The translations under genes and the position numbers were made by a program. From an uncultured Actinomycetota bacterium (GTDB lineage Bacteria; Actinomycetota; Acidimicrobiia; Spongiisociales; UBA4744), in assembly GCA_963707435.1 (NCBI GenBank), contig CAVPPF010000007.1, forward strand, positions 356,900-420,899: a stretch of DNA of 64,000 bases. The letters are read 5' to 3'. Positions 5,891-44,032 of the stretch are shown here, one piece after another (positions within the stretch are counted from its first letter, which is position 1; each line of letters starts with the position of its first letter). Below the pieces are notes generated by a model. That model was not told where the DNA came from, ran no database searches, and saw only the letters and a program-made list of their open reading frames with translations.

Positions 5891-7189
5891 CTAGGTGCTC
5901 CTGTCTTCCATCGCCACCCAGTCCCGCCTGCCCTCGCCGATGTAGATCTGCCGGGGACGGCCGATTCTCGTGGTCGGGTCCTGCTCCATCTCGTGCCACT
6001 GCGCGATCCATCCCGGCAAGCGCCCGATGGCGAACAGGACGGTGAACAGCTCGGTGGGGAAGCCCATGGCCCGGTAGATGATGCCCGAGTAGAAGTCGAC
6101 GTTCGGGTAGAGCTTCTTTTCGACGAAGTAGTCGTCATCGAGTGCGACTTCCTCGAGTTGCATCGCGACGTCGAGCAGTGGGTCGTTTGTCTCCAGCTTG
6201 GCGAGGATTTCTTGCGCATATCGTTTGATGATCTGCGCGCGGGGATCAAAGTTCTTGTAGACCCGGTGACCGAATCCCATCAAGCGGAACGGGTCTTCCT
6301 TGTCCTTGGCCCGTTCAACGAACGGCGCGATGTCGCCACCTGCCGCAACGATTCCTTCCAGCATCTCAACGACGGCCTGATTGGCTCCACCGTGGAGTGG
6401 ACCGGAGAGCGCATGGACGCCCGCGGCCACCGACGAGAAGATATTGGCGTGTCCGGACCCGACCACCCGTACCGTGGTTGCCGAGCAATTCTGTTCGTGG
6501 TCGGCATGCAGGATGAACAGGACATTCAGGGCCTTGGCAACGGCAGGGTCGACTTCATAGTTCTCGGTGGGGTAGGAGAACATCATGTGGAGGAAGTTGG
6601 CAACGTAGTCGAGATCGTTGCGTGGATAGACGTACGGCTGGTTCTGGCTGTACTTGTACGACCAGGCGACCATCGTCGGTACCTTGGCCAGCAGACGCTT
6701 CATGCTGATGTCCCTGGCCCAGGGATCGCGGGGGTCGAGTGCGTCCGGGTAGTACGTAGCCAGCGCCGAGATCGCCGACGCGAGAATCTGCATCGGATGT
6801 GCCTCCCGCGGGAAGGCTTCGAAGAGATGCTTCATGTCCTCGCGCAGCATCGTGTGGTGCGTCACCTCATCGGCATACTCATCGAGTTCAGATCGGGAAG
6901 GCAGCCGACCGTTGGCGAGGAGAAGGGCGACTTCGAGGAACGTGGCATGTTCGGCGATCTGTTCGATCGGGTAGCCCCGGTACCGGAGTATGCCTTCTTC
7001 GCCATCGAGAAAGGTGATCGCGCTCTTGGTTTCGGCAGTGTTGGCAAAGCCCCGATCGAAGGTCACCATGCCGGTTGCCCCGCGCAGCTTGTTGATGTCC
7101 ACAGCGATCTCACCTTCGGTTCCAACGATCACCGGCAGCGGGTACTCGTGATCGCCGACGCGCAGAACCGCATCTTCTCGTTGTGTCAT
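5891..7189 (-). CDS. gltA: citrate synthase, bacterial GltA-like type
   Basis: GFGHRVYKNFDPRAQ...KKLYPNVDFYSGIIYRAMGFPTELFTVLFAIGRLPGWIAQWHEM...RIGRPRQIYIGEGRRD closely matches E. coli GltA. Start chosen at MTQRED (ATG complement 7187-7189) with AAGGAGAG 7 nt upstream. The 5' extension in the ORF track is rejected. Confidence 0.85.
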   Translation of the reverse strand: MTQREDAVLRVGDHEYPLPVIVGTEGEIAVDINKLRGATGMVTFDRGFANTAETKSAITFLDGEEGILRYRGYPIEQIAEHATFLEVALLLANGRLPSRSELDEYADEVTHHTMLREDMKHLFEAFPREAHPMQILASAISALATYYPDALDPRDPWARDISMKRLLAKVPTMVAWSYKYSQNQPYVYPRNDLDYVANFLHMMFSYPTENYEVDPAVAKALNVLFILHADHEQNCSATTVRVVGSGHANIFSSVAAGVHALSGPLHGGANQAVVEMLEGIVAAGGDIAPFVERAKDKEDPFRLMGFGHRVYKNFDPRAQIIKRYAQEILAKLETNDPLLDVAMQLEEVALDDDYFVEKKLYPNVDFYSGIIYRAMGFPTELFTVLFAIGRLPGWIAQWHEMEQDPTTRIGRPRQIYIGEGRRDWVAMEDRST

Positions 7190-7272
7190 CAAACTCTCTC
7201 CTTGTGTTGATTGGTACGCCCGTGTTCCGGGGACGCAGGTTCGCGGTCCCCGGAACAAGCCGGGCTGTGGTC

Positions 7273-8580
7273 CTACTCGCTCGTGATGCCGGCCACTTCT
7301 TCCAGCATCGCCGTGGTCACCGACTTCGGACGTTCAATGGGATAACCCAGGGCTCGATCCCAGATGATGTTGGAAAGCACGCCGATCGAGCGGCCGATCC
7401 CAAACAGCACCGTATAGAAGTCGTACTCCTGCAAACCGTAGTGCCATTGGATGACACCGGACTGAGCATCCACATTGGGCCACGGGTTCTTGGCCTTGCC
7501 CTGTTCCTCGAGGATCGGCGGCACGATGTGGTACAGCATGTCGACGAACTTGAAGATGGGATCGTCCGGGAGGTACTTCAGGCAGAAGTTGCGCTGTTCG
7601 GCGTATCTCGGATCCGTCTTGCGGAGAACGGCGTGGCCGAATCCCGGGATGACCTGCCCGGAGTTCAGCGTTTCCCAGACGAACTCCTTCATCCTTTCTT
7701 CCGAGGGCACCTCGCCGCCCATCTGGTCCATCACGGACTGGATCCATCGCAGCACTTCCTGGTTGGCGAGGCCGTGCAAGGGTCCGGCCAGACCGTTGAT
7801 CATCGCCGAAGCGGAGTAGTAGACGTCTGAAAGCGCGCTGCCGACCAGGTGCCCGGCATGAGCGCTCACGTTGCCGCTCTCGTGATCCGAATGCAGAATG
7901 AAGTACAGACGTGCGACCTCGTCGTACGGTTCGGGGATTCCCATCATGTGTGCGAAATTGCCGCCGAGATCGAGGCTCGGATCCGGGGCGATGGGCGTAT
8001 CGTCCCGGTACTTGAGCCGGTAGATGAACGCACCGAGTTCCGGGAGGCGAGCCCACAGGTTGAGGGCATCCTCGAGTGTCGGCTGCCAGTGGTCCATCTT
8101 TCCCAGGCCGGCGTTGTAGGCCTTCACATACTCAGACTCGCGTTGCATGGCCAGGATTCCGGCCGAGAACATGGTCATCGGATGCGTGTCTTTCGGCATG
8201 GCTCGCAGCGTGTCGAACACATAACCCGGCACGCCCGCCCGGCTCTTGATGTCGGCTGCCAGCTCGGCCACGTCGTCTTCCGTCGGTATTTCTCCGGTCA
8301 GGAGCAGATAGATGTGCCCCTCGACGTACGGCATTTCCTTGCCGGGCACCTTGGGGAGTCTCGCCAGCGTTTCCGGAATCGTGTATCCGCGGAATCGGAT
8401 CCCTTCGTTGGGGTCCAGGTAGGAGATATCGGTGACAAGGCACCGAACGCCGCGGGCACCTCCAATGGCTTGTGACATGGTTACTTCAGAGACCTTGACG
8501 TCGCCGAATTCTTTGATCAACCGCGCCGTACGGGGCCGCCACCCGTCGATCTTGGCTCCGAGTGCTTCCTTCAATCCCAT
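7273..8580 (-). CDS. citrate synthase, eukaryotic/mitochondrial-like type
   Basis: GLANQEVLRWIQSVMDQMGGEVPSEERMKEFVWETLNSGQVIPGFGHAVLRKTDPRYAEQRNFCLKYLPDDPIFKFVDMLYHIVPPILEEQGKAKNPWPNVDAQSGVIQWHYG...YTVLFGIGRSIGVLSNIIWDRALGYPIERPKS aligns almost position by position with pig-heart/mitochondrial citrate synthase as I recall it. GGAGGAGG RBS precedes the ATG. Confidence 0.85.
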   Translation of the reverse strand: MGLKEALGAKIDGWRPRTARLIKEFGDVKVSEVTMSQAIGGARGVRCLVTDISYLDPNEGIRFRGYTIPETLARLPKVPGKEMPYVEGHIYLLLTGEIPTEDDVAELAADIKSRAGVPGYVFDTLRAMPKDTHPMTMFSAGILAMQRESEYVKAYNAGLGKMDHWQPTLEDALNLWARLPELGAFIYRLKYRDDTPIAPDPSLDLGGNFAHMMGIPEPYDEVARLYFILHSDHESGNVSAHAGHLVGSALSDVYYSASAMINGLAGPLHGLANQEVLRWIQSVMDQMGGEVPSEERMKEFVWETLNSGQVIPGFGHAVLRKTDPRYAEQRNFCLKYLPDDPIFKFVDMLYHIVPPILEEQGKAKNPWPNVDAQSGVIQWHYGLQEYDFYTVLFGIGRSIGVLSNIIWDRALGYPIERPKSVTTAMLEEVAGITSE

Positions 8581-8667
8581 GGTGCCTCCTCCGGCATCCG
8601 CCCGCGATTGTGGGACCCAGTAGAACGGCCCTCACGACTGCGGACTATTTCGATTGCGTCTCCCTCC

Positions 8668-10725
8668 TCAGTCCTCTTCCTTTTGTTTGGCCGCCGCGAT
8701 CACCTTGTCGGCCTCGTTCTGTGGCATTTCCTGGTAGTGATCGAACTCCAGTTCGAAGATGCCGCGGCCGCCCGTGATCGAGCGCAGATCGATGGTGTAC
8801 CGCTGCATCTCGGCCAGCGGCACCTCGGCGGTGACCACGCGCAGCCGTCCGTCCGAGTCCATGCCGAGGACCCGGCCCCGCTTGGCGTTCAGGTCGCCGA
8901 TCACATCGCCCATGTACTCCTCGGGAACCTTGATCGAGGCTTTGACGATCGGTTCCAGGAGCGCCGGCCGAAGGCTGGCGGCGGCCGCTCGGACCGCCAG
9001 GATGCCCGCCATCCGGAATGACAACTCGTCTGAATCGACGGCGTGGTACTTGCCGTCGTAGACGGTGGCCCGCACGTCGATCGTGGGGTAGCCGGCCAGG
9101 ATGCCCCGGTCGAGACCCTCCTGGATGCCCTTGTCGACCGCCGGGATGTATTGACGCGGGATCGAGCCGCCCTTGATGCCGTTCACGAACTCATATCCGG
9201 TGCCGCGGGGCAGTGGTTCGAAGCGGACGAACGCCACCCCGAACTGCCCCCTGCCACCGCTCTGCTTCTTGTGCTTGCCTTCGGCTTCGGCGGTTGCCGT
9301 GATCGTCTCGCGGTAGGGGACGGTCGGCACGGCGGTGTCAACCTCGACGCCGAATTTGCGAGCCAGCCGGGCCACCGTCACATCGAGATGGGTGTCGCCG
9401 AGACCGGACAGCACCGTCTCCTTGGTTTCGGCCCTTCGTTCGACCTCGAGCGTCGGGTCTTCGTCGGAGAGTCTCGCCAGCGCGGTCGACAGCTTCTCCT
9501 CGTCCTGTGCTGCCTTCGGGAAGACGGCGAGACTCATCACCGGTTTCGGGAAAGGAACCGGAGCGAGTCGAACATTTGATCCGTGGCTCCGCAACGTTTC
9601 CCCGGCTACCACGGCGTCCAGCTTGGCTACGGCGGCGATGTCCCCGGTGACCACCTCCGGGGCATCGTGGTGATCTTTGCCCTGCATGAAGAACAGGTTG
9701 TGCATCCGTACTTTGGCGCCGTCGGAGGCTTGTTCCAGCTCGTCGTCGGCGCGGACTCGTCCCGAGAACACCCGGAACAAGGAGACACGCCCGACGTAGG
9801 GATCGGAGATGGTCTTGAAAACGTAGGCAATGGTCGGCCCGGTGGGATCGACGGCCAACCCATCACCTTCGGCCAGAGGCGGCGAGGAATGTTCGAGGGG
9901 TTTGGGGCCGAAATCGACGATGAAGTCGGCGAGCGTGTCGATGCCGATCAGCTTGGCGGCAGATCCGATGAGTACCGGAAAGACTTCGCTCTCCAGCATG
10001 CCCTGGTGGATGACCTCGACCATCTGTTCCCGGCTCGGTTCTTCCCCTTCGAAGTACTTCTCCATCAATTCGTCGTCGGTCTCCACGACAGACTCAACGA
10101 GGGAGGTGTGGGTCTCCTGGACGGTTGCAGCCAGGTCGGCCGGGGGGTCGGCGGGAGAACCTATTGCGCTTCCGCCCGTGTACAGATGCGCACGATTGGA
10201 GACGATGCGGACCAGGCCGGACAGTTCGTTTTCCGATCCGATCGGCATGTGCACCGGTGCGATCTGCTTGCCGAAGGCTTCCTGCAGTTCGGATAGGGTG
10301 CGAGCGTAGGACGAACGTTCCCGGTCGAGCTTGTTGATGAACACCGCTCGCGGTATGCCTTCCTCAGTGGCCATGTCCCAGAGGATTTCCGTCTGCACCT
10401 CGACTCCGTCGACGCCGGAGACCACGAAGAGAGCGAGGTCTGCGGCCCGGAGCGCGGATCGGGCGTCACCGAGAAAGCCGGCGTAGCCGGGAGCGTCGAT
10501 GATGTTGACCTTGTGGCCCTTCCAGGTGAAGGAGGCGAGGGCGACACTGAGCGATATCTGCCGCTCGATCTCCTCGGGCTCGAAATCGGTGACCGTATTG
10601 CCATCCTCGACGCGGCCCACCCGGGTCGTCGCTCCTGCAGTGAAAAGGAGGGCTTCGGCGAGCGACGTCTTACCGCTCCCTCCATGACCGACCAGCACAA
10701 CATTCCTGATCTTCTCCGGAACCAC
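8668..10725 (-). CDS. elongation factor G paralog (EF-G-like GTPase)
   Basis: P-loop VGHGGSGKTSL, NKLD motif and EF-G domains II-V (..GVAFVRFEPLPRG.., ..RATVYDGKYHAVDSDELSFRMAG..). The G3 motif reads IIDAPGYAGF rather than the canonical DTPGH. Start chosen at GTG (complement 10723-10725) after GAGGAGG; the upstream 55-codon extension is rejected. It is not the str-operon fusA. Confidence 0.8.
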   Translation of the reverse strand: MVPEKIRNVVLVGHGGSGKTSLAEALLFTAGATTRVGRVEDGNTVTDFEPEEIERQISLSVALASFTWKGHKVNIIDAPGYAGFLGDARSALRAADLALFVVSGVDGVEVQTEILWDMATEEGIPRAVFINKLDRERSSYARTLSELQEAFGKQIAPVHMPIGSENELSGLVRIVSNRAHLYTGGSAIGSPADPPADLAATVQETHTSLVESVVETDDELMEKYFEGEEPSREQMVEVIHQGMLESEVFPVLIGSAAKLIGIDTLADFIVDFGPKPLEHSSPPLAEGDGLAVDPTGPTIAYVFKTISDPYVGRVSLFRVFSGRVRADDELEQASDGAKVRMHNLFFMQGKDHHDAPEVVTGDIAAVAKLDAVVAGETLRSHGSNVRLAPVPFPKPVMSLAVFPKAAQDEEKLSTALARLSDEDPTLEVERRAETKETVLSGLGDTHLDVTVARLARKFGVEVDTAVPTVPYRETITATAEAEGKHKKQSGGRGQFGVAFVRFEPLPRGTGYEFVNGIKGGSIPRQYIPAVDKGIQEGLDRGILAGYPTIDVRATVYDGKYHAVDSDELSFRMAGILAVRAAAASLRPALLEPIVKASIKVPEEYMGDVIGDLNAKRGRVLGMDSDGRLRVVTAEVPLAEMQRYTIDLRSITGGRGIFELEFDHYQEMPQNEADKVIAAAKQKEED

Positions 10726-10819
10726 AGAACCTCCTCTGGCGCTCAGGTTTGTTCGAATTGTAGTGAGCCGAAACCAGGCCCGGACCTGTGTGCTACCTTC
10801 CGTTGCCCAAGGAGCACCC

Positions 10820-11392
10820 GTGATCGAAACCATCGTCCGTCCCCGGATCGGCAGAGCCCTGCAGGCGGTGGGTCGGAGACTTGCCGCCACCGGGCTCCGA
10901 CCGGCTTATCTGACCATGGCGGGTCTGCTGCTCACGGTGGTCGGCGCATACCTCGTTGCCCGGGATCTGCTGGTGGTCGGCGGCTCACTGGTGGCGGCCG
11001 GGTCCTTCGTCGATGCTCTGGATGGACCGCTGGCACGTGAGCTCGGGATCGCGGGACCCCGGGGAGCCGTTCTCGACTCCGTGACCGACAGGATCGGGGA
11101 GGCAGCGATGTTCGCCGGGGTCGGGTACCTGGTTGCTCCTGATCCGTTGCTCGTGGCCGTGGCCATGGCAGGTTTGGGAGGCTCGCTCGTGACCTCGTAC
11201 GTGCGGGCCAAAGTCGAGGCGAGCGGCGTGGACGGCCGGGCAGGTCTGATCGGACGAGCGGAACGGGTCATTGTGTACTGCATCGGGGTGATCACCGGGC
11301 TCGTCGGCCCCATGCTGTGGGCGATGGCAGTCCTGACCTGGTTGACCGTGGTCCAGCGAAGTGTTGTTGCCTGGCGCCGGCTCGAGCCGTGA
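10820..11392 (+). CDS. CDP-alcohol phosphatidyltransferase (phosphatidylinositol-phosphate synthase-like)
   Basis: DALDGPLARELGIAGPRGAVLDSVTDRIGE matches the CDP-OH phosphotransferase signature D-G-x2-A-R-x8-G-x3-D-x3-D, and the protein is multi-TM. GTG at 10820 follows AAGGAG. It sits at the position pgsA1 occupies in the mycobacterial thrS-pgsA1-acyltransferase-pimA cluster. Confidence 0.75.
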   Translation: MIETIVRPRIGRALQAVGRRLAATGLRPAYLTMAGLLLTVVGAYLVARDLLVVGGSLVAAGSFVDALDGPLARELGIAGPRGAVLDSVTDRIGEAAMFAGVGYLVAPDPLLVAVAMAGLGGSLVTSYVRAKVEASGVDGRAGLIGRAERVIVYCIGVITGLVGPMLWAMAVLTWLTVVQRSVVAWRRLEP

Positions 11393-36468: not shown

Positions 36469-39091
36469 ATGGATTCCAATCAGCTCCGATCGACCTTTCT
36501 GAAGTTCTTCGAAGCACGCTCTCACACCGTGCGGCCGTCTTCGTCGCTGATACCCGTCGACCCGACGCTGCTGCTGAACAACGCCGGCATGGTGCCGTTC
36601 AAGCCCTACTTCCTGGGCGAGGAACAGCCGCCCTGGTTGCGAGCCGTCTCGTCGCAGAAGTGTGTTCGAACCGTCGATATCGACATCATCGGGACCACCG
36701 CTCGCCACGCCAGCTTCTTCGAGATGCTCGGCAACTTCAGCTTCGGCGACTACTTCAAGGAAGACGCTATTCCGTGGGCCTACGAGCTGGTGACGGAGGC
36801 GTTCGGCATCGACCCCGAGTTCCTGTGGTTCACCGTTCACGAGACGGATGACGAGGCCGCCGAAATCTGGCTCGACAAGGTCGGCGTCGAGCCTCACCGG
36901 TTGCAGCGGCGCGGTCACGACAACTTCTGGCAGATGGGCGTGCCGGGACCCTGCGGACCCAGCTCGGAGATCTTCTTCGACCGTGGCTCCGCCTACGGGC
37001 CCGACGGGGGACCGGTCGTTGATGAGGAGCGGTTCGTCGAGATCTGGAATCTCGTGTTCATGCAGAACATCCAGGACGAGCCCTACCACGTCGTGGGAGA
37101 TCTCCCGGCGAAGAGCATCGACACGGGAATGGGCCTCGAGCGCATGGCCACCGTCATGCAAGGGGCAGCAACCATCTTTGATATCGACGTCGTGCGGCAT
37201 GTCCTCGACACGGCCGCCCGATCGGCCGGAGTGGCCTACGGCGAAGACCCCATGGTGGACGTGTCGTTGCGGGTCCTGGCCGACCACGGACGGGCGATGA
37301 CGTTCCTCATCGGCGACGGCGTGGTCCCTTCGAACGACGGGCGCGGATACGTGCTCCGCCGCATCCTGCGCCGGGCCGTCCGGCACGCCTGGAGATTGGG
37401 CGGCGAAGGTTTGATCACGCCCAAACTGGTTCAGGCCACGGTCGACGTCATGAGCCCCGGGTATCCGGAATTGCTGGATCAGCAGGGCTTCATCACCGAT
37501 GTTGTGACCCGGGAGGAGGCACGCTTCCGTCAGACGCTGCGGTCCGGGCACACCCTGCTCGAAACCGAACTGGAATCGATCGCCGAGGGTGAGCCCCTTT
37601 CCGGTGACACAACGTTCAAACTGCACGATACGTTTGGATTCCCGGTCGAACTGACCAAGGAAATCGCTGCGGAGCGCGGTGTGGAGATCGACCTGGGAGC
37701 GTTCGAGGCCGCCATGGATGAGCAGCGTAGGAAAGCCCGGGCTGCCTGGAAAGGTGGCGAGGACGCGGCGAGCTGCCGATGCCTACCGGATCCTGCTGGA
37801 TGACATCGGCCCGACCGAGTTCCTCGGGTACACGCACGAGGCCAGCCAGAGCAGGGTGCTCTCGCTCCTCAGGGAGGGAGAGGTCATCGACCGCGCCGAG
37901 GAAGGCCAGGAGGTGGAGGTCTTCCTCGATCGGACGCCGTTCTACGCGGAGGCGGGTGGCCAGGTCGGCGATACCGGTCTGATCGAGACCGATACCGGCC
38001 GCCTCACGGTCAGGGACACCCAGGCCGGCGTACCCGGTCTCAACGGCCATCGCGCGGTGGTGGCAAGCGGCTTCGTGCAGGTCGGGCAAGACGCTCAGGC
38101 CAGGATCGATTCGCCGCGCCGGGAGGGCATCCGCAAGAGCCACACCGGAACGCACGTCCTGCACTGGGCCCTCCGCAAGGTCCTCGGTACCCACGTTCAG
38201 CAGGCCGGTTCGCTCGTCCAGAACGGTCGTTTGCGATTCGATTTCAGCCATTTTGGAGGCCTGGAGGAGGACGAATTCTCCGAGGTCGAGCGACTGGCGA
38301 ATGAACGGGTCATCGCCAACGCGGGCGTGCGAGCATTTGAAACCAGCAAAGACGAGGCGCAGGCGCTGGGAGCACTGGCCTTCTTCGGCGACAAGTACGG
38401 CGAGGTTGTGCGGGTCGTCGAGATCGGCGACTACTCGAAGGAGCTGTGCGGTGGCACGCATACTCCTTCGGTCGGCCAGGTTGGTCCGCTCGTAGTCATG
38501 GGCGAATCCTCCATCGGATCGAATCTCCGGCGCATCGAGGCCTACTCCGGCGAGCACGCCTACCAGTACCTGACCGGACTCCGGAGACGTTTGACCGACA
38601 CCGGCCACCTGTTGCGTGCCCAGCCCGACGAGGTGCCCGCCCGGGTCGCCGCCCTCATGAAGCGGGCCAAAGAGCTCGAAGAGGAACTGGCCGCAATCGG
38701 ACAACGATCGCGAGCAGAAGCAGCCGTCGAAATCGCCGCGAACGCCGGAACGATCGGCGAGGCCAAGTGGGCGGTAGCCGGCGTCGGTGAGATGCCGCCC
38801 GACCAATTGCGGGTGCTCGCCCTGCAAGTCCGCGACCGCCTCGGTCGCAGTGTGGTCGTGCTCGGAAGCACCAATGAAGGCAAGGGTGCCCTGCTGGCTG
38901 CGGTGTCCGCCGACCTGGTTGCTGCCGGGTTGTCCGCAGCCGAAATCATTCTTCCCGCCGCCAGGATCCTCGGAGGGGGAGGCAGCCGGGATCCCGAGCT
39001 TGCGCAGGCCGGCGGGCCTCGCGGGGACCGGCTGGAGGAAGCTCTCGACGCTGCCAGGGAAGCCGCCGCAAGCGCCCTGACGGAGGTGTGA
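36469..39091 (+). pseudogene. alaS: alanine--tRNA ligase, reading frame broken by an apparent +1 frameshift near 37771
   Basis: ORF 36469..37803 is a complete AlaS N-terminal catalytic half (..FFEMLGNFSFGDYFK.., ..DTGMGLERM..) ending ..RKARAAWKGGEDAASCRCLPDPAG*. ORF 37679..39091 in the +1 frame is the C-terminal half (..AADAYRILLDDIGPTEFLGY.., HTGTHVLHWAL zinc motif, ..CGGTHTPSVGQVGP..). Removing one base around gcggcgAgctgcc (about 37771) joins them as ..GGEDAA-AADAYRIL... Confidence 0.85.
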
Positions 39092-41436: not shown

Positions 41437-42342
41437 ATGTCGCTAACCGGTGCCCTCGAGGCATTTCCGCTTCCCGAGGTACTTCGCCTCCTGGCGCGGT
41501 CGGAAAAGAGCGGGACGCTGAGAATTGACGCATCCGACCTGCAAGGTCGGATCTACCTCACAGATGGTTCGCTCAGCTACGCGACGACCCGCCGCGAGGA
41601 GGATCTGGTCGATGATCTTGTCGGAGCGGGTTTGATCGACTCCCAGGACTGGGTGCTGGTCGAGCGCCGCGAGAAGGACGTCGTCGAAGTTCTGGCCGCA
41701 GACGCCACCGAGCAGCAACTGACCGACCTCCTGGCCGACCAGATCGCCGATGTCATCTTTCGATTGATGCGCCGCAGCGACGGCGACTTCGAATTCTCGG
41801 AGTCCGTCGGCCCGCGCTACAACACGGGGATCAGCGTTGACATCGACGCCTCGATAGCCGAGGCGGAGAAACGAAACGCGCAGTGGTCGGAGATCGAGGA
41901 CGTGATCCCGGCGATCACGTTCCATCTGCGCATGGTTCCCGATCTCAACGACCGCAACGAGGTCTCCGTTCCGTCGACTACCTGGAGGGTGCTCGCCGCC
42001 CTGCAGGGTGAGGGAAGCATCGAAGAGGTAGCACGACGACTGGGAATGACCGACTTCGCCGTCGCGCAGATCATGGCCGGACTTGCCCGGGACGGTCTGC
42101 TCGAAATCGTCGATATGCCGCCACCCGCCGCCTACGGGTACGGTGACGTGCCCCAGGAACCACAGCAAGCCCCGGCGCCGCAACCGGAAGCTCCCGTCGA
42201 GGACGACCAGGATGACGAAATCCTTCTCGAATCGGCGTTGTCCGATGTCGTGGCACCCGAAGAGGATCCTGACGCTCCGGTGATCGCCCGCAGACGTGGC
42301 CTCGGCGCCCGTGTCCAGGAAGCTAAGGACGCCGGTGAGTAA
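41437..42342 (+). CDS. PATAN/DUF4388-domain protein with acidic Pro-rich C-terminal tail
   Basis: Start MSLTGAL after GGAGG. ..GALEAFPLPEVLRLLARSEKSGTLRIDASDLQGRIYLTDGSLSYATT fits the DUF4388/PATAN pattern. A winged-helix-like segment (..EEVARRLGMTDFAVAQIMAGLARDGLL) follows. Tail is PPPAAYGYGDVPQEPQQAPAPQPEAPVEDDQDDEILLESALSDVVAPEEDPDAP. Lies immediately upstream of pilB. Confidence 0.6.
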   Translation: MSLTGALEAFPLPEVLRLLARSEKSGTLRIDASDLQGRIYLTDGSLSYATTRREEDLVDDLVGAGLIDSQDWVLVERREKDVVEVLAADATEQQLTDLLADQIADVIFRLMRRSDGDFEFSESVGPRYNTGISVDIDASIAEAEKRNAQWSEIEDVIPAITFHLRMVPDLNDRNEVSVPSTTWRVLAALQGEGSIEEVARRLGMTDFAVAQIMAGLARDGLLEIVDMPPPAAYGYGDVPQEPQQAPAPQPEAPVEDDQDDEILLESALSDVVAPEEDPDAPVIARRRGLGARVQEAKDAGE

Positions 42343-42349
42343 TCGAGCC

Positions 42350-44032
42350 ATGGTCCAGCGGGATGCGGGACATCTCGGGACGCTCCTCCTCGAGGAGGGC
42401 ATCGTCACCGAGGAGACCCTCAAGAAGGGCCTCGATCTCCACCATGAGACCGGCCGTCCACTCGGACGCGTCCTCGTGGAAGAGAACCTGGTCGAAGAAC
42501 GCGACCTCGTCCGGGTACTCGCCAAGAACATCGGGATCGAATTCGTCGACCTGGACGAGGGTGCCGTCGACCCGGCCGCCGCAGCCCTGATCCCCGAAGC
42601 TCTGGCCAGGCGCTACGCCGCACTGCCCATCGGTTTTGAGGACGAGAAGCTCGTGATTGCGATGGCCGACCCGGCCAATGTGCTGGCGATCGACGACATC
42701 CGGGCGATCTCCGGGCGTGAGGTGATCCTCAAGGTAGCCACCCGCTCGGATGTGGAGGCTGCGGTATCCCGTCTTGCCTCGCTCGACAACTCTGTGACCG
42801 ATATGGCCGAGCTCGCCGCCGAGGACTCGGTTGAGGCGCATGATCTCAGCGCCGTTGAAGCGGCGGCGGATGAGGCGCCGGTCGTCAAGCTGGTCAACAT
42901 GCTGATTACCAGGGCAGCCGCCGACCGTGCTTCGGACATCCACATCGAACCAACCGAACGAGACCTCAGAGTCCGATTCCGGATCGACGGTGTACTCCAC
43001 GAGATCATGCGGACTCCCCGTTCGATCTCAAATGCGCTCGTCAGCCGGCTCAAGATCATGGCCGACATCGACATCGCCGAGCGGCGCCGTCCTCAGGACG
43101 GACGCATCAACCTGAAGGTCGGTGGCAAACAGCTCGACCTCCGCGTGTCGAGCCTGCCCACCATCTACGGCGAGAAAGTCGTAATGCGGCTGCTCGATAC
43201 CGGTACGGCACTGCTCGAGCTCAAGGATCTCGGATTCCTCGGTGAAAACGAGCGGCGCTACCAGGAATCGTTCAGCAAGCCGTACGGGACCATCCTGTGC
43301 GTCGGGCCGACCGGTTCCGGCAAGTCGACCACGCTCTATGCAACGCTCAACGTCCTCAACCGGCCGGAAGTGAACATCGTGACGATCGAGGACCCGGTCG
43401 AGTACCGGCTGCCGGGAATCAGCCAGGTCCAGGTGAACAAGAAGGCCGGCCTCAACTTCGCATCGGCCTTGCGCTCGTTCCTGCGCCAGGACCCGGACAT
43501 CATGCTGGTTGGTGAGATCCGTGACCAGGAGACGGCGAACATCGCCATTGAATCGGCGCTGACCGGCCACCTGGTTCTTTCCACGCTCCACACCAACAAT
43601 GCTCCCGCCAGTGTCAGCCGCTTGATCGAGATGGGGGTCGAACCGTTCCTGGTGGGCTCCGCCCTCGACGCAGTCTTGGCGCAGCGCCTCGCCCGACGGT
43701 TGTGCAGTCACTGCAAAGAGGAATACACCCCAACGGCGGAGGCGCTTCGGGAAGCCAACTTCCCCATGGAGGATCGCGATGAAGCGCCCAAGCTGCACCG
43801 GGCCGTTGGCTGCAAACACTGCGCAAATACCGGCTACCGGGGCCGGCTGGCAGTCCATGAGTTGATGACCGTGAACGAGGAGATCGAGTTGCTGACCGTT
43901 GAGCGAGCCGCCACCGAGAACCTGACGCGGGCGGCTATCGCCAACGGAATGCGGACCCTCAGACAGGACGGCATGGACAAGGTTGCCATGGGGCTCACCT
44001 CCATCGAGGAGATCATGCGGGTGATCATCTAG
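42350..44032 (+). CDS. pilB: type IV pilus assembly ATPase
   Basis: Two N-terminal GspE_N/MshEN-like repeats (..LGTLLLEEGIVTEETLKKGL.., ..PLGRVLVEENLVEERDLVRVL..), a T2SSE_N domain, Walker A VGPTGSGKSTT, Asp/His boxes and the tetracysteine CSHC...CKHC. Confidence 0.88.
   Translation: MVQRDAGHLGTLLLEEGIVTEETLKKGLDLHHETGRPLGRVLVEENLVEERDLVRVLAKNIGIEFVDLDEGAVDPAAAALIPEALARRYAALPIGFEDEKLVIAMADPANVLAIDDIRAISGREVILKVATRSDVEAAVSRLASLDNSVTDMAELAAEDSVEAHDLSAVEAAADEAPVVKLVNMLITRAAADRASDIHIEPTERDLRVRFRIDGVLHEIMRTPRSISNALVSRLKIMADIDIAERRRPQDGRINLKVGGKQLDLRVSSLPTIYGEKVVMRLLDTGTALLELKDLGFLGENERRYQESFSKPYGTILCVGPTGSGKSTTLYATLNVLNRPEVNIVTIEDPVEYRLPGISQVQVNKKAGLNFASALRSFLRQDPDIMLVGEIRDQETANIAIESALTGHLVLSTLHTNNAPASVSRLIEMGVEPFLVGSALDAVLAQRLARRLCSHCKEEYTPTAEALREANFPMEDRDEAPKLHRAVGCKHCANTGYRGRLAVHELMTVNEEIELLTVERAATENLTRAAIANGMRTLRQDGMDKVAMGLTSIEEIMRVII

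Follow-up and report, generated by a model that had tools for sequence, protein, structure and literature searches.

A single surplus base splitting alaS of an uncultured Actinomycetota bacterium, a probable consensus artefact

The alaS locus and its two reading frames

We analysed a 64-kb stretch of DNA from an uncultured Actinomycetota bacterium, which we call the window. The alanyl-tRNA synthetase (AlaRS) gene alaS lies there in the gene order mgsA - small ORF - alaS - ruvX - yceG/mltG - aroE, which is the order also found in the relatives. As deposited, alaS is called as two open reading frames (ORFs) on the plus strand. The first ORF (36469..37803) starts with ATG and encodes 444 amino acids in frame 1, and the second ORF (37679..39091) starts with GTG and encodes 470 amino acids in frame 2; according to the ORF list they have 125 nt in common. 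The tRNA-synt_2c profile with its 552 positions is divided between the two, with positions 2-436 matched in the first ORF and positions 450-551 in the second, which also carries the tRNA_SAD (Pfam: PF07973, E=1.6e-15) and DHHA1 (Pfam: PF02272, E=1.2e-09) domains. Because the tRNA-synt_2c profile continues from the first ORF into the second, the two ORFs are successive parts of one AlaRS. This is the arrangement given in the original prediction, which described both halves as intact and conserved, and the ORFs, the Pfam annotation and the dN/dS values reported below agree with it.

By similarity the gene can be divided into three stretches. Codons 1-434 at 36469..37770 on the plus strand, in frame 1, cover the aminoacylation and tRNA-recognition domains and end with ...AAWKGGEDAA. 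Their product is 91.6% identical in a tblastn search to the stop-to-stop alaS ORF of the related locus L001, which encodes the protein P0001. The four bases AGCT at 37771..37774 form the junction. Codons 436-873 and the stop codon follow at 37775..39091 on the plus strand, in frame 2, and include the end of the tRNA-recognition domain, the editing domain (tRNA_SAD) and the C-Ala domain (DHHA1); residues 436-873 of the repaired protein map to 37775-39088 in frame 2 with 100% identity (tblastn).

Both ORFs carry additional out-of-frame sequence around the junction. Frame 1 reads ...RKARAAWKGGEDAA and then continues with ten unrelated residues, SCRCLPDPAG, before the TGA at 37801-37803, so that the called protein ends with ...WKGGEDAA-SCRCLPDPAG and the truncated product reads ...GGEDAASCRCLPDPAG across the junction. 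This tail at 37771..37803 on the plus strand has no AlaRS homology, and where it stands the relatives have ...(T/S)ADAYRxLLDDIG. In frame 2 the upstream extension at 37679..37774 on the plus strand (MWRSTWERSRPPWMSSVGKPGLPGKVARTRRA), with the candidate start codons GTG 37679 and ATG 37718, is not AlaRS sequence. The translation is unrelated up to ...RTRRA and AlaRS then resumes at ADAYRILLDDIGPTEFLGY.

The 444 amino acid product has its own entry in the public protein collection (P0249, from NCBI and ENA), on a contig of 612,786 bp. The same contig holds P0121, an EF-G protein which is 100% identical to the EF-G of the window. As P0249 is the same 444 amino acid fragment, the frameshift belongs to the deposited record and was not made by the cutting of the window.

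The surplus base and selection on the two halves

In the DNA alignment the alaS gene of the window has 2623 nt, compared to 2622 nt in each of the related loci L001, L002, L003, L004 and L005. These five relatives, with 84-92% protein identity, have an unbroken gene encoding 873 amino acids, and the comparison with close relatives which had been proposed as a check thus finds the window one base longer. The ten closest database proteins are likewise 84-92% identical and every one of them is exactly 873 amino acids long. A two-base deletion instead of a one-base insertion was ruled out, given the gene lengths of 2623 and 2622 nt. The frameshift is private to the assembly of the window and the relatives keep the frame, with one gap column in the 2623-nt alignment. 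This column, at 37772, is the only length difference of the window across the whole of alaS in both the 4-way and the 8-way alignments.

The AGCT of the junction (37771-37774) is opposite a single codon of the relatives, ACG or ACA (Thr) in the aligned DNA, and some related proteins have Ser at this position. Removing G37772 leaves ACT (Thr), gives AATADAY and restores an AlaRS of 873 amino acids. The repaired junction, GGEDAATADAYR, is then identical to that of P0001, and in the form ...GGEDAATADAYRILLDD... it is identical to the closest relative. Removing C37773 or T37774 gives Ser, a residue that also occurs among the relatives, whereas removing A37771, the base chosen in the original prediction, gives AAAADAY. 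The conserved protein context after the repair is ...GGEDAA(T/S)ADAYR.... The earlier placement of the junction near 37771 with one base to be skipped was therefore right in that one base is surplus; A37771 is not singled out. Judged by the alignments the surplus base could be any one of AGCT.

After the repair the gene has the full bacterial AlaRS domain set of tRNA-synt_2c, tRNA_SAD and DHHA1, aligns to the 873 amino acid relatives over 100% of the length and lies in the conserved neighbourhood. It differs from other bacterial AlaRS genes in that the deposited sequence needs two frames instead of a single uninterrupted one, with the surplus base at 37771-37774. None of the matches found is a conspecific sequence in which alaS is intact, and the closest has 92% protein and 86% DNA identity. 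In the 90% cluster, the remaining members (P0244-P0253) all belong to distinct species-level relatives. Neither version of the junction, extra base included or removed (GGCGAGGACGCGGCGAN{0,1}CTGCCGATGCCTACCGG), had a match in genome_contigs or metagenome_contigs.

The selection on the two halves was compared by dN/dS. Between the window and L001, codons 1-434 give 0.055 and codons 435-873 give 0.073. The values for the intact pair L001/L005 are 0.049 upstream and 0.057 downstream of the junction. In an alignment of 12 sequences the repaired window protein has three private amino acid changes, the same number as the intact P0001. These values indicate that both halves of alaS are under strong purifying selection, without signs of evolutionary decay in a gene that appears to be broken.

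Indels in related assemblies and the origin of the extra base

Two of the five relatives, L005 (MFD03551.bin.1.99) and L004 (MFD09964.bin.1.364), are Microflora Danica MAGs labelled 'uncultured Actinomycetota', and more distant alaS matches are labelled Acidimicrobiia. The contig of L005 (contig_44758) recurs as L084 in the ENA assembly ERZ25039508, which also holds L001 (contig_7591), L085 (contig_89850) and L087 (contig_55774); therefore several related species were assembled from one sample. For the MFD-LR MAGs, Nanopore reads were the sole input to Flye (--meta, --nano-hq), and the result was polished by Medaka in a single round (PMC12313526). The 612,786-bp contig with P0249 and P0121 resembles the MFD contigs in size and in its sources (NCBI and ENA). 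From this and from the relatives we infer that the assembly of the window was made like the sister MFD assemblies, from Nanopore reads only. Indels in the Nanopore consensus lead to frameshifted gene calls, and metagenome bins with a coverage below ~40-fold still require polishing with short reads (PMC9262707).

All coding-like ORFs were compared across the window and the related loci. Over the ~43 kb of the window that could be compared (roughly 0-21 kb and 26-49 kb), alaS is the sole private frame change. Apparent frame changes at 3-845 of the window relative to L084 and L085 concern nothing but non-coding sequence upstream of the APH gene, within its stop-to-stop ORF, and were discarded, as they shift no gene. 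In addition, five suspicious pairs of overlapping ORFs on the same strand were checked with Pfam, namely two citrate synthase genes, glycosyltransferase/DUF3048, ruvB/queA, pilN/pilO and aroK/aroB; all are complete and separate genes, ten in total, with no further frameshift among them. With no further indel in these ~43 kb and five ORF pairs, the rate is about one event in 43-64 kb, and the assembly of the window does not look very error-prone.

Similar indels are present in the sister assemblies. In L001, private +1 insertions are found in aspS (GAGATG[C]CGCG) and in ruvX, the latter leading to a RuvX-YceG fusion called with 499 amino acids. A gene for a T2SSE-family (pilus) ATPase is shifted in L005, also by a private +1 insertion. 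In L087 a single base inserted 30 nt ahead of the alaS stop codon results in an AlaS-RuvX fusion of 1010 amino acids. The most affected locus is L086 (contig_347, ERZ25039603), whose alaS has six private indels of one base each, four of them insertions and two deletions, and is called as three fragments (241, 358 and 95 amino acids); its yceG, aroE and patA-like neighbours are likewise called as short pieces. The alaS copies of L086 and L087 break at other positions than that of the window. For the window and the close relatives compared, there are ~4 events in ~170 kb, a tally outside of which contig_347 stands with far more. Three of four insertions fall within or beside the motif TGCCG, compared to 3-4% of positions, but it was picked post hoc. 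As a common context of the insertions TGCCG was rejected, since the events in L086 and L087 do not fit.

The 8-way alignment of alaS has eight single-base indels and no in-frame indel. Each of the eight is private to one of the three ENA assemblies (window, L086 or L087), and the two JGI contigs have none in alaS. Because this is a conserved essential gene with a dN/dS of ~0.05 and without in-frame indels, the pattern fits a noisy consensus and not evolution.

Strong circumstantial evidence points to an assembly or sequencing artefact, and not a biological frameshift, as the cause of the split alaS, a reading to which we give a probability of roughly 85%. An indel of this kind was already preferred in the original prediction, and this preference is supported by the private base, by the absence of relaxed selection and of a recoding signal (see below) and by the sister indels in L001, L005, L086 and L087. 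The organism would thus have one ordinary intact alaS of 2622 nt for an AlaRS of 873 amino acids. In the deposited consensus, one of the four bases AGCT at 37771-37774 would be a spurious insertion, by which gene callers would split alaS into the ORFs of 444 and 470 amino acids. The insertion most likely arose as a consensus error when a metagenome was assembled from long (Nanopore) reads alone, probably at moderate coverage; the sample may also have contained closely related populations. We infer that the reads do not support the extra base.

The split is not a new biological feature and is to be grouped with the consensus indel errors that are familiar from long-read-only assemblies. Like these, it is a single-base indel in one assembly within an otherwise conserved gene, and sister assemblies made with Flye and Medaka show the same in other genes. 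It differs from the cases stressed in the literature, which are homopolymers, whereas the site in the window and most of the sister sites are not homopolymers. For annotation, alaS should be treated as intact (873 amino acids) or flagged as a probable sequencing frameshift; it does not belong among pseudogenes, losses of essential functions or recoding events. In catalogues of long-read MAGs, private single-base indels have to be weighed when pseudogenes, gene fusions or frameshifting are mined.

Alternative readings of the split gene

AlaRS is essential and normally encoded by a single-copy gene. This speaks against a real and very recent mutation, which would have turned alaS into a new pseudogene in the population that was sequenced or in its dominant strain, and we regard this as unlikely, although less so than the readings that follow. 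The cells would have to survive with a second alaS, which was not found within the 64-kb window, or the consensus would have caught a transient or minority lineage. In favour of a real mutation, the deposited sequence does carry the base. Two further observations weigh on the same side and against an artefact: the site is not a homopolymer, which is the classic context of Nanopore errors, and alaS alone is broken over the ~43 kb of the window that were compared. If real, the insertion would have to be extremely recent, because neither half shows relaxed constraint. Furthermore, independent pseudogenisation is implausible as an explanation for all of the sister indels in aspS, ruvX and alaS.

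N-terminal fragments of AlaRS aminoacylate tRNA-Ala, AlaX proteins edit in trans, and Nanoarchaeum equitans has a naturally split AlaRS. A real frameshift could accordingly have left a working two-piece AlaRS, in which the N-terminal product of 434 residues (with 10 junk residues) would charge tRNA-Ala, and a C-terminal product from GTG 37679 or ATG 37718 would edit and provide C-Ala in trans in the manner of AlaX. Its probability is smaller again, and we consider it very unlikely. The position of the break suits it, since it lies just past the region of self-standing crystallised fragments (E. coli 1-441, PDB: 3hxu; A. aeolicus, PDB: 1riq) and close to where the catalytic fragment gives way to the editing domain; the crystallised catalytic fragments 3hxu, 1riq and 9jc7 match residues 1-428 of the window AlaRS. 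The two frame-2 start codons also have Shine-Dalgarno-like strings upstream, GGAG 4 nt before GTG 37679 and GAGG 9 nt before ATG 37718. However, both lie within codons of conserved residues and the strings are present in the intact relatives as well. Only ATG 37718 is specific to the window. It stems from a GAT codon, for which seven aligned relatives have GAG, GAC or GAA.

In contrast to the split AlaRS of N. equitans and to AlaX, the halves in the window are overlapping out-of-frame ORFs, with 125 nt of junk overlap in place of a tidy junction of stop and start codon. The split is not conserved as two separate genes in related genomes; no relative has it and the relatives encode a single protein of 873 amino acids. 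There is also no time signature of an adaptation to the split state. If the base were real, an uncultured Acidimicrobiia-like Actinomycetota would have a rare natural split of an essential synthetase, which had arisen only recently and fell at a domain boundary. Nothing in the analysis argues for such a real split.

Programmed +1 ribosomal frameshifting or transcriptional slippage, by which a full-length AlaRS would be restored from two intact and conserved halves, is the least credible of the readings and is already close to refuted by non-conservation: the five intact relatives and all matches of 84-92% identity are read in one frame, whereas programmed frameshifts such as that of prfB are conserved among homologues. 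It was rejected on this ground and for the lack of a signal. In agreement with the original prediction, inspection of the junction (GACGCGGCGAGCTGCCGATGCC) found neither a homopolymer, as transcriptional slippage would need, nor a slippery heptamer. The shift site reads GCG GCG AGC TGC, without an in-frame stop and without a codon prone to shifting, whether slippery or hungry, and the frame-1 stop follows 30 nt downstream. The likeness to prfB-type frameshifting is in direction only, the downstream part of alaS being in the +1 frame. The window has no conserved shift, no CUU-UGA-like site where a stop or rare codon follows in frame, and no Shine-Dalgarno stimulator at the correct spacing of ~3 nt upstream. 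A Shine-Dalgarno-like GAGGA at 37759-37763 lies ~8 nt upstream of the junction and could be taken as a stimulator; it is formed by conserved Glu-Asp codons and the relatives with an intact alaS have it too. No Rfam match at the gathering score was found across the whole window, and the RNA fold of 37740-37860 is unremarkable with z = -0.78, as 36 of 200 shuffled sequences fold as well.

Single-base insertions in aspS, ruvX and a pilus ATPase gene

The contig of the closest relative (L001, ERZ25039508 contig_7591) carries two one-base insertions that are private, each being seen in one assembly only. One lies in aspS (L001:2440-2480, equivalent to about 34480 in the window) and puts the C-terminal 136 amino acids out of frame. 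The other lies in ruvX (L001:8840-8870, window equivalent about 39332) and gives rise to a RuvX-YceG 'fusion', which is called as one protein of 499 amino acids. Both insertions are probably consensus errors and not real fusions.

Another private one-base insertion, CTTG[C]CGCG, splits a pilus ATPase gene of the T2SSE/MshEN family in MFD03551.bin.1.99 (L005:16700-16730, window equivalent about 43140). The same gene is unbroken in the window (42284-44029), in L001 and in MFD09964.bin.1.364 (L004).

Indels in alaS of other relatives

In L086 (contig_347 of ERZ25039603), alaS (L086:2754-5377) contains six private single-base indels, and the gene is called in pieces of 241, 358 and 95 amino acids. 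The neighbouring yceG, aroE and a PatA_N gene are likewise called in short pieces, and the region looks like low-accuracy consensus.

A one-base insertion 30 nt upstream of the alaS stop codon in L087 (contig_55774 of ERZ25039508) results in P0255, an 'AlaS-RuvX fusion protein' of 1010 amino acids (L087:2001-5033). In protein databases P0255 would pass for a novel domain fusion.

Sequence context and co-occurring populations

Of four private insertions compared, three, namely those at window 37771-37779, in aspS of L001 and in the T2SSE gene of L005, lie inside or adjoining the pentamer TGCCG, a context covering only 3-4% of positions; this pattern was spotted post hoc, after the insertions had been seen. 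The heptamer TGCCGCG is found at two of these insertions, and L001 has it at only one place in its 14.6 kb. The TGCCG context may point to basecalling or polishing errors that depend on the surrounding sequence. The indels of L086 and L087 lie outside this context.

In assembly ERZ25039508, made from one sample, no fewer than four species-level populations related to each other within this Actinomycetota lineage are represented (L001, L084/L005, L085 and L087), with AlaRS identities of 85-92% among them. The co-occurrence of such relatives in a sample may lower consensus accuracy.

Further observations on window genes

Two tandem citrate synthase genes are present on the minus strand of the window (5894-7333 and 7276-8631), both of which span the whole Pfam profile PF00285 (positions 1-357 of 357). 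There are also two citrate synthase genes in L084 (contig_44758) but only one in L085 (contig_89850). Among clustered database proteins, two sequences from the window are also present on a 612,786-bp contig held in NCBI and ENA, as P0249, the 444-amino-acid AlaRS fragment (window 36469-37803), and P0121, the EF-G (window 8671-10905).
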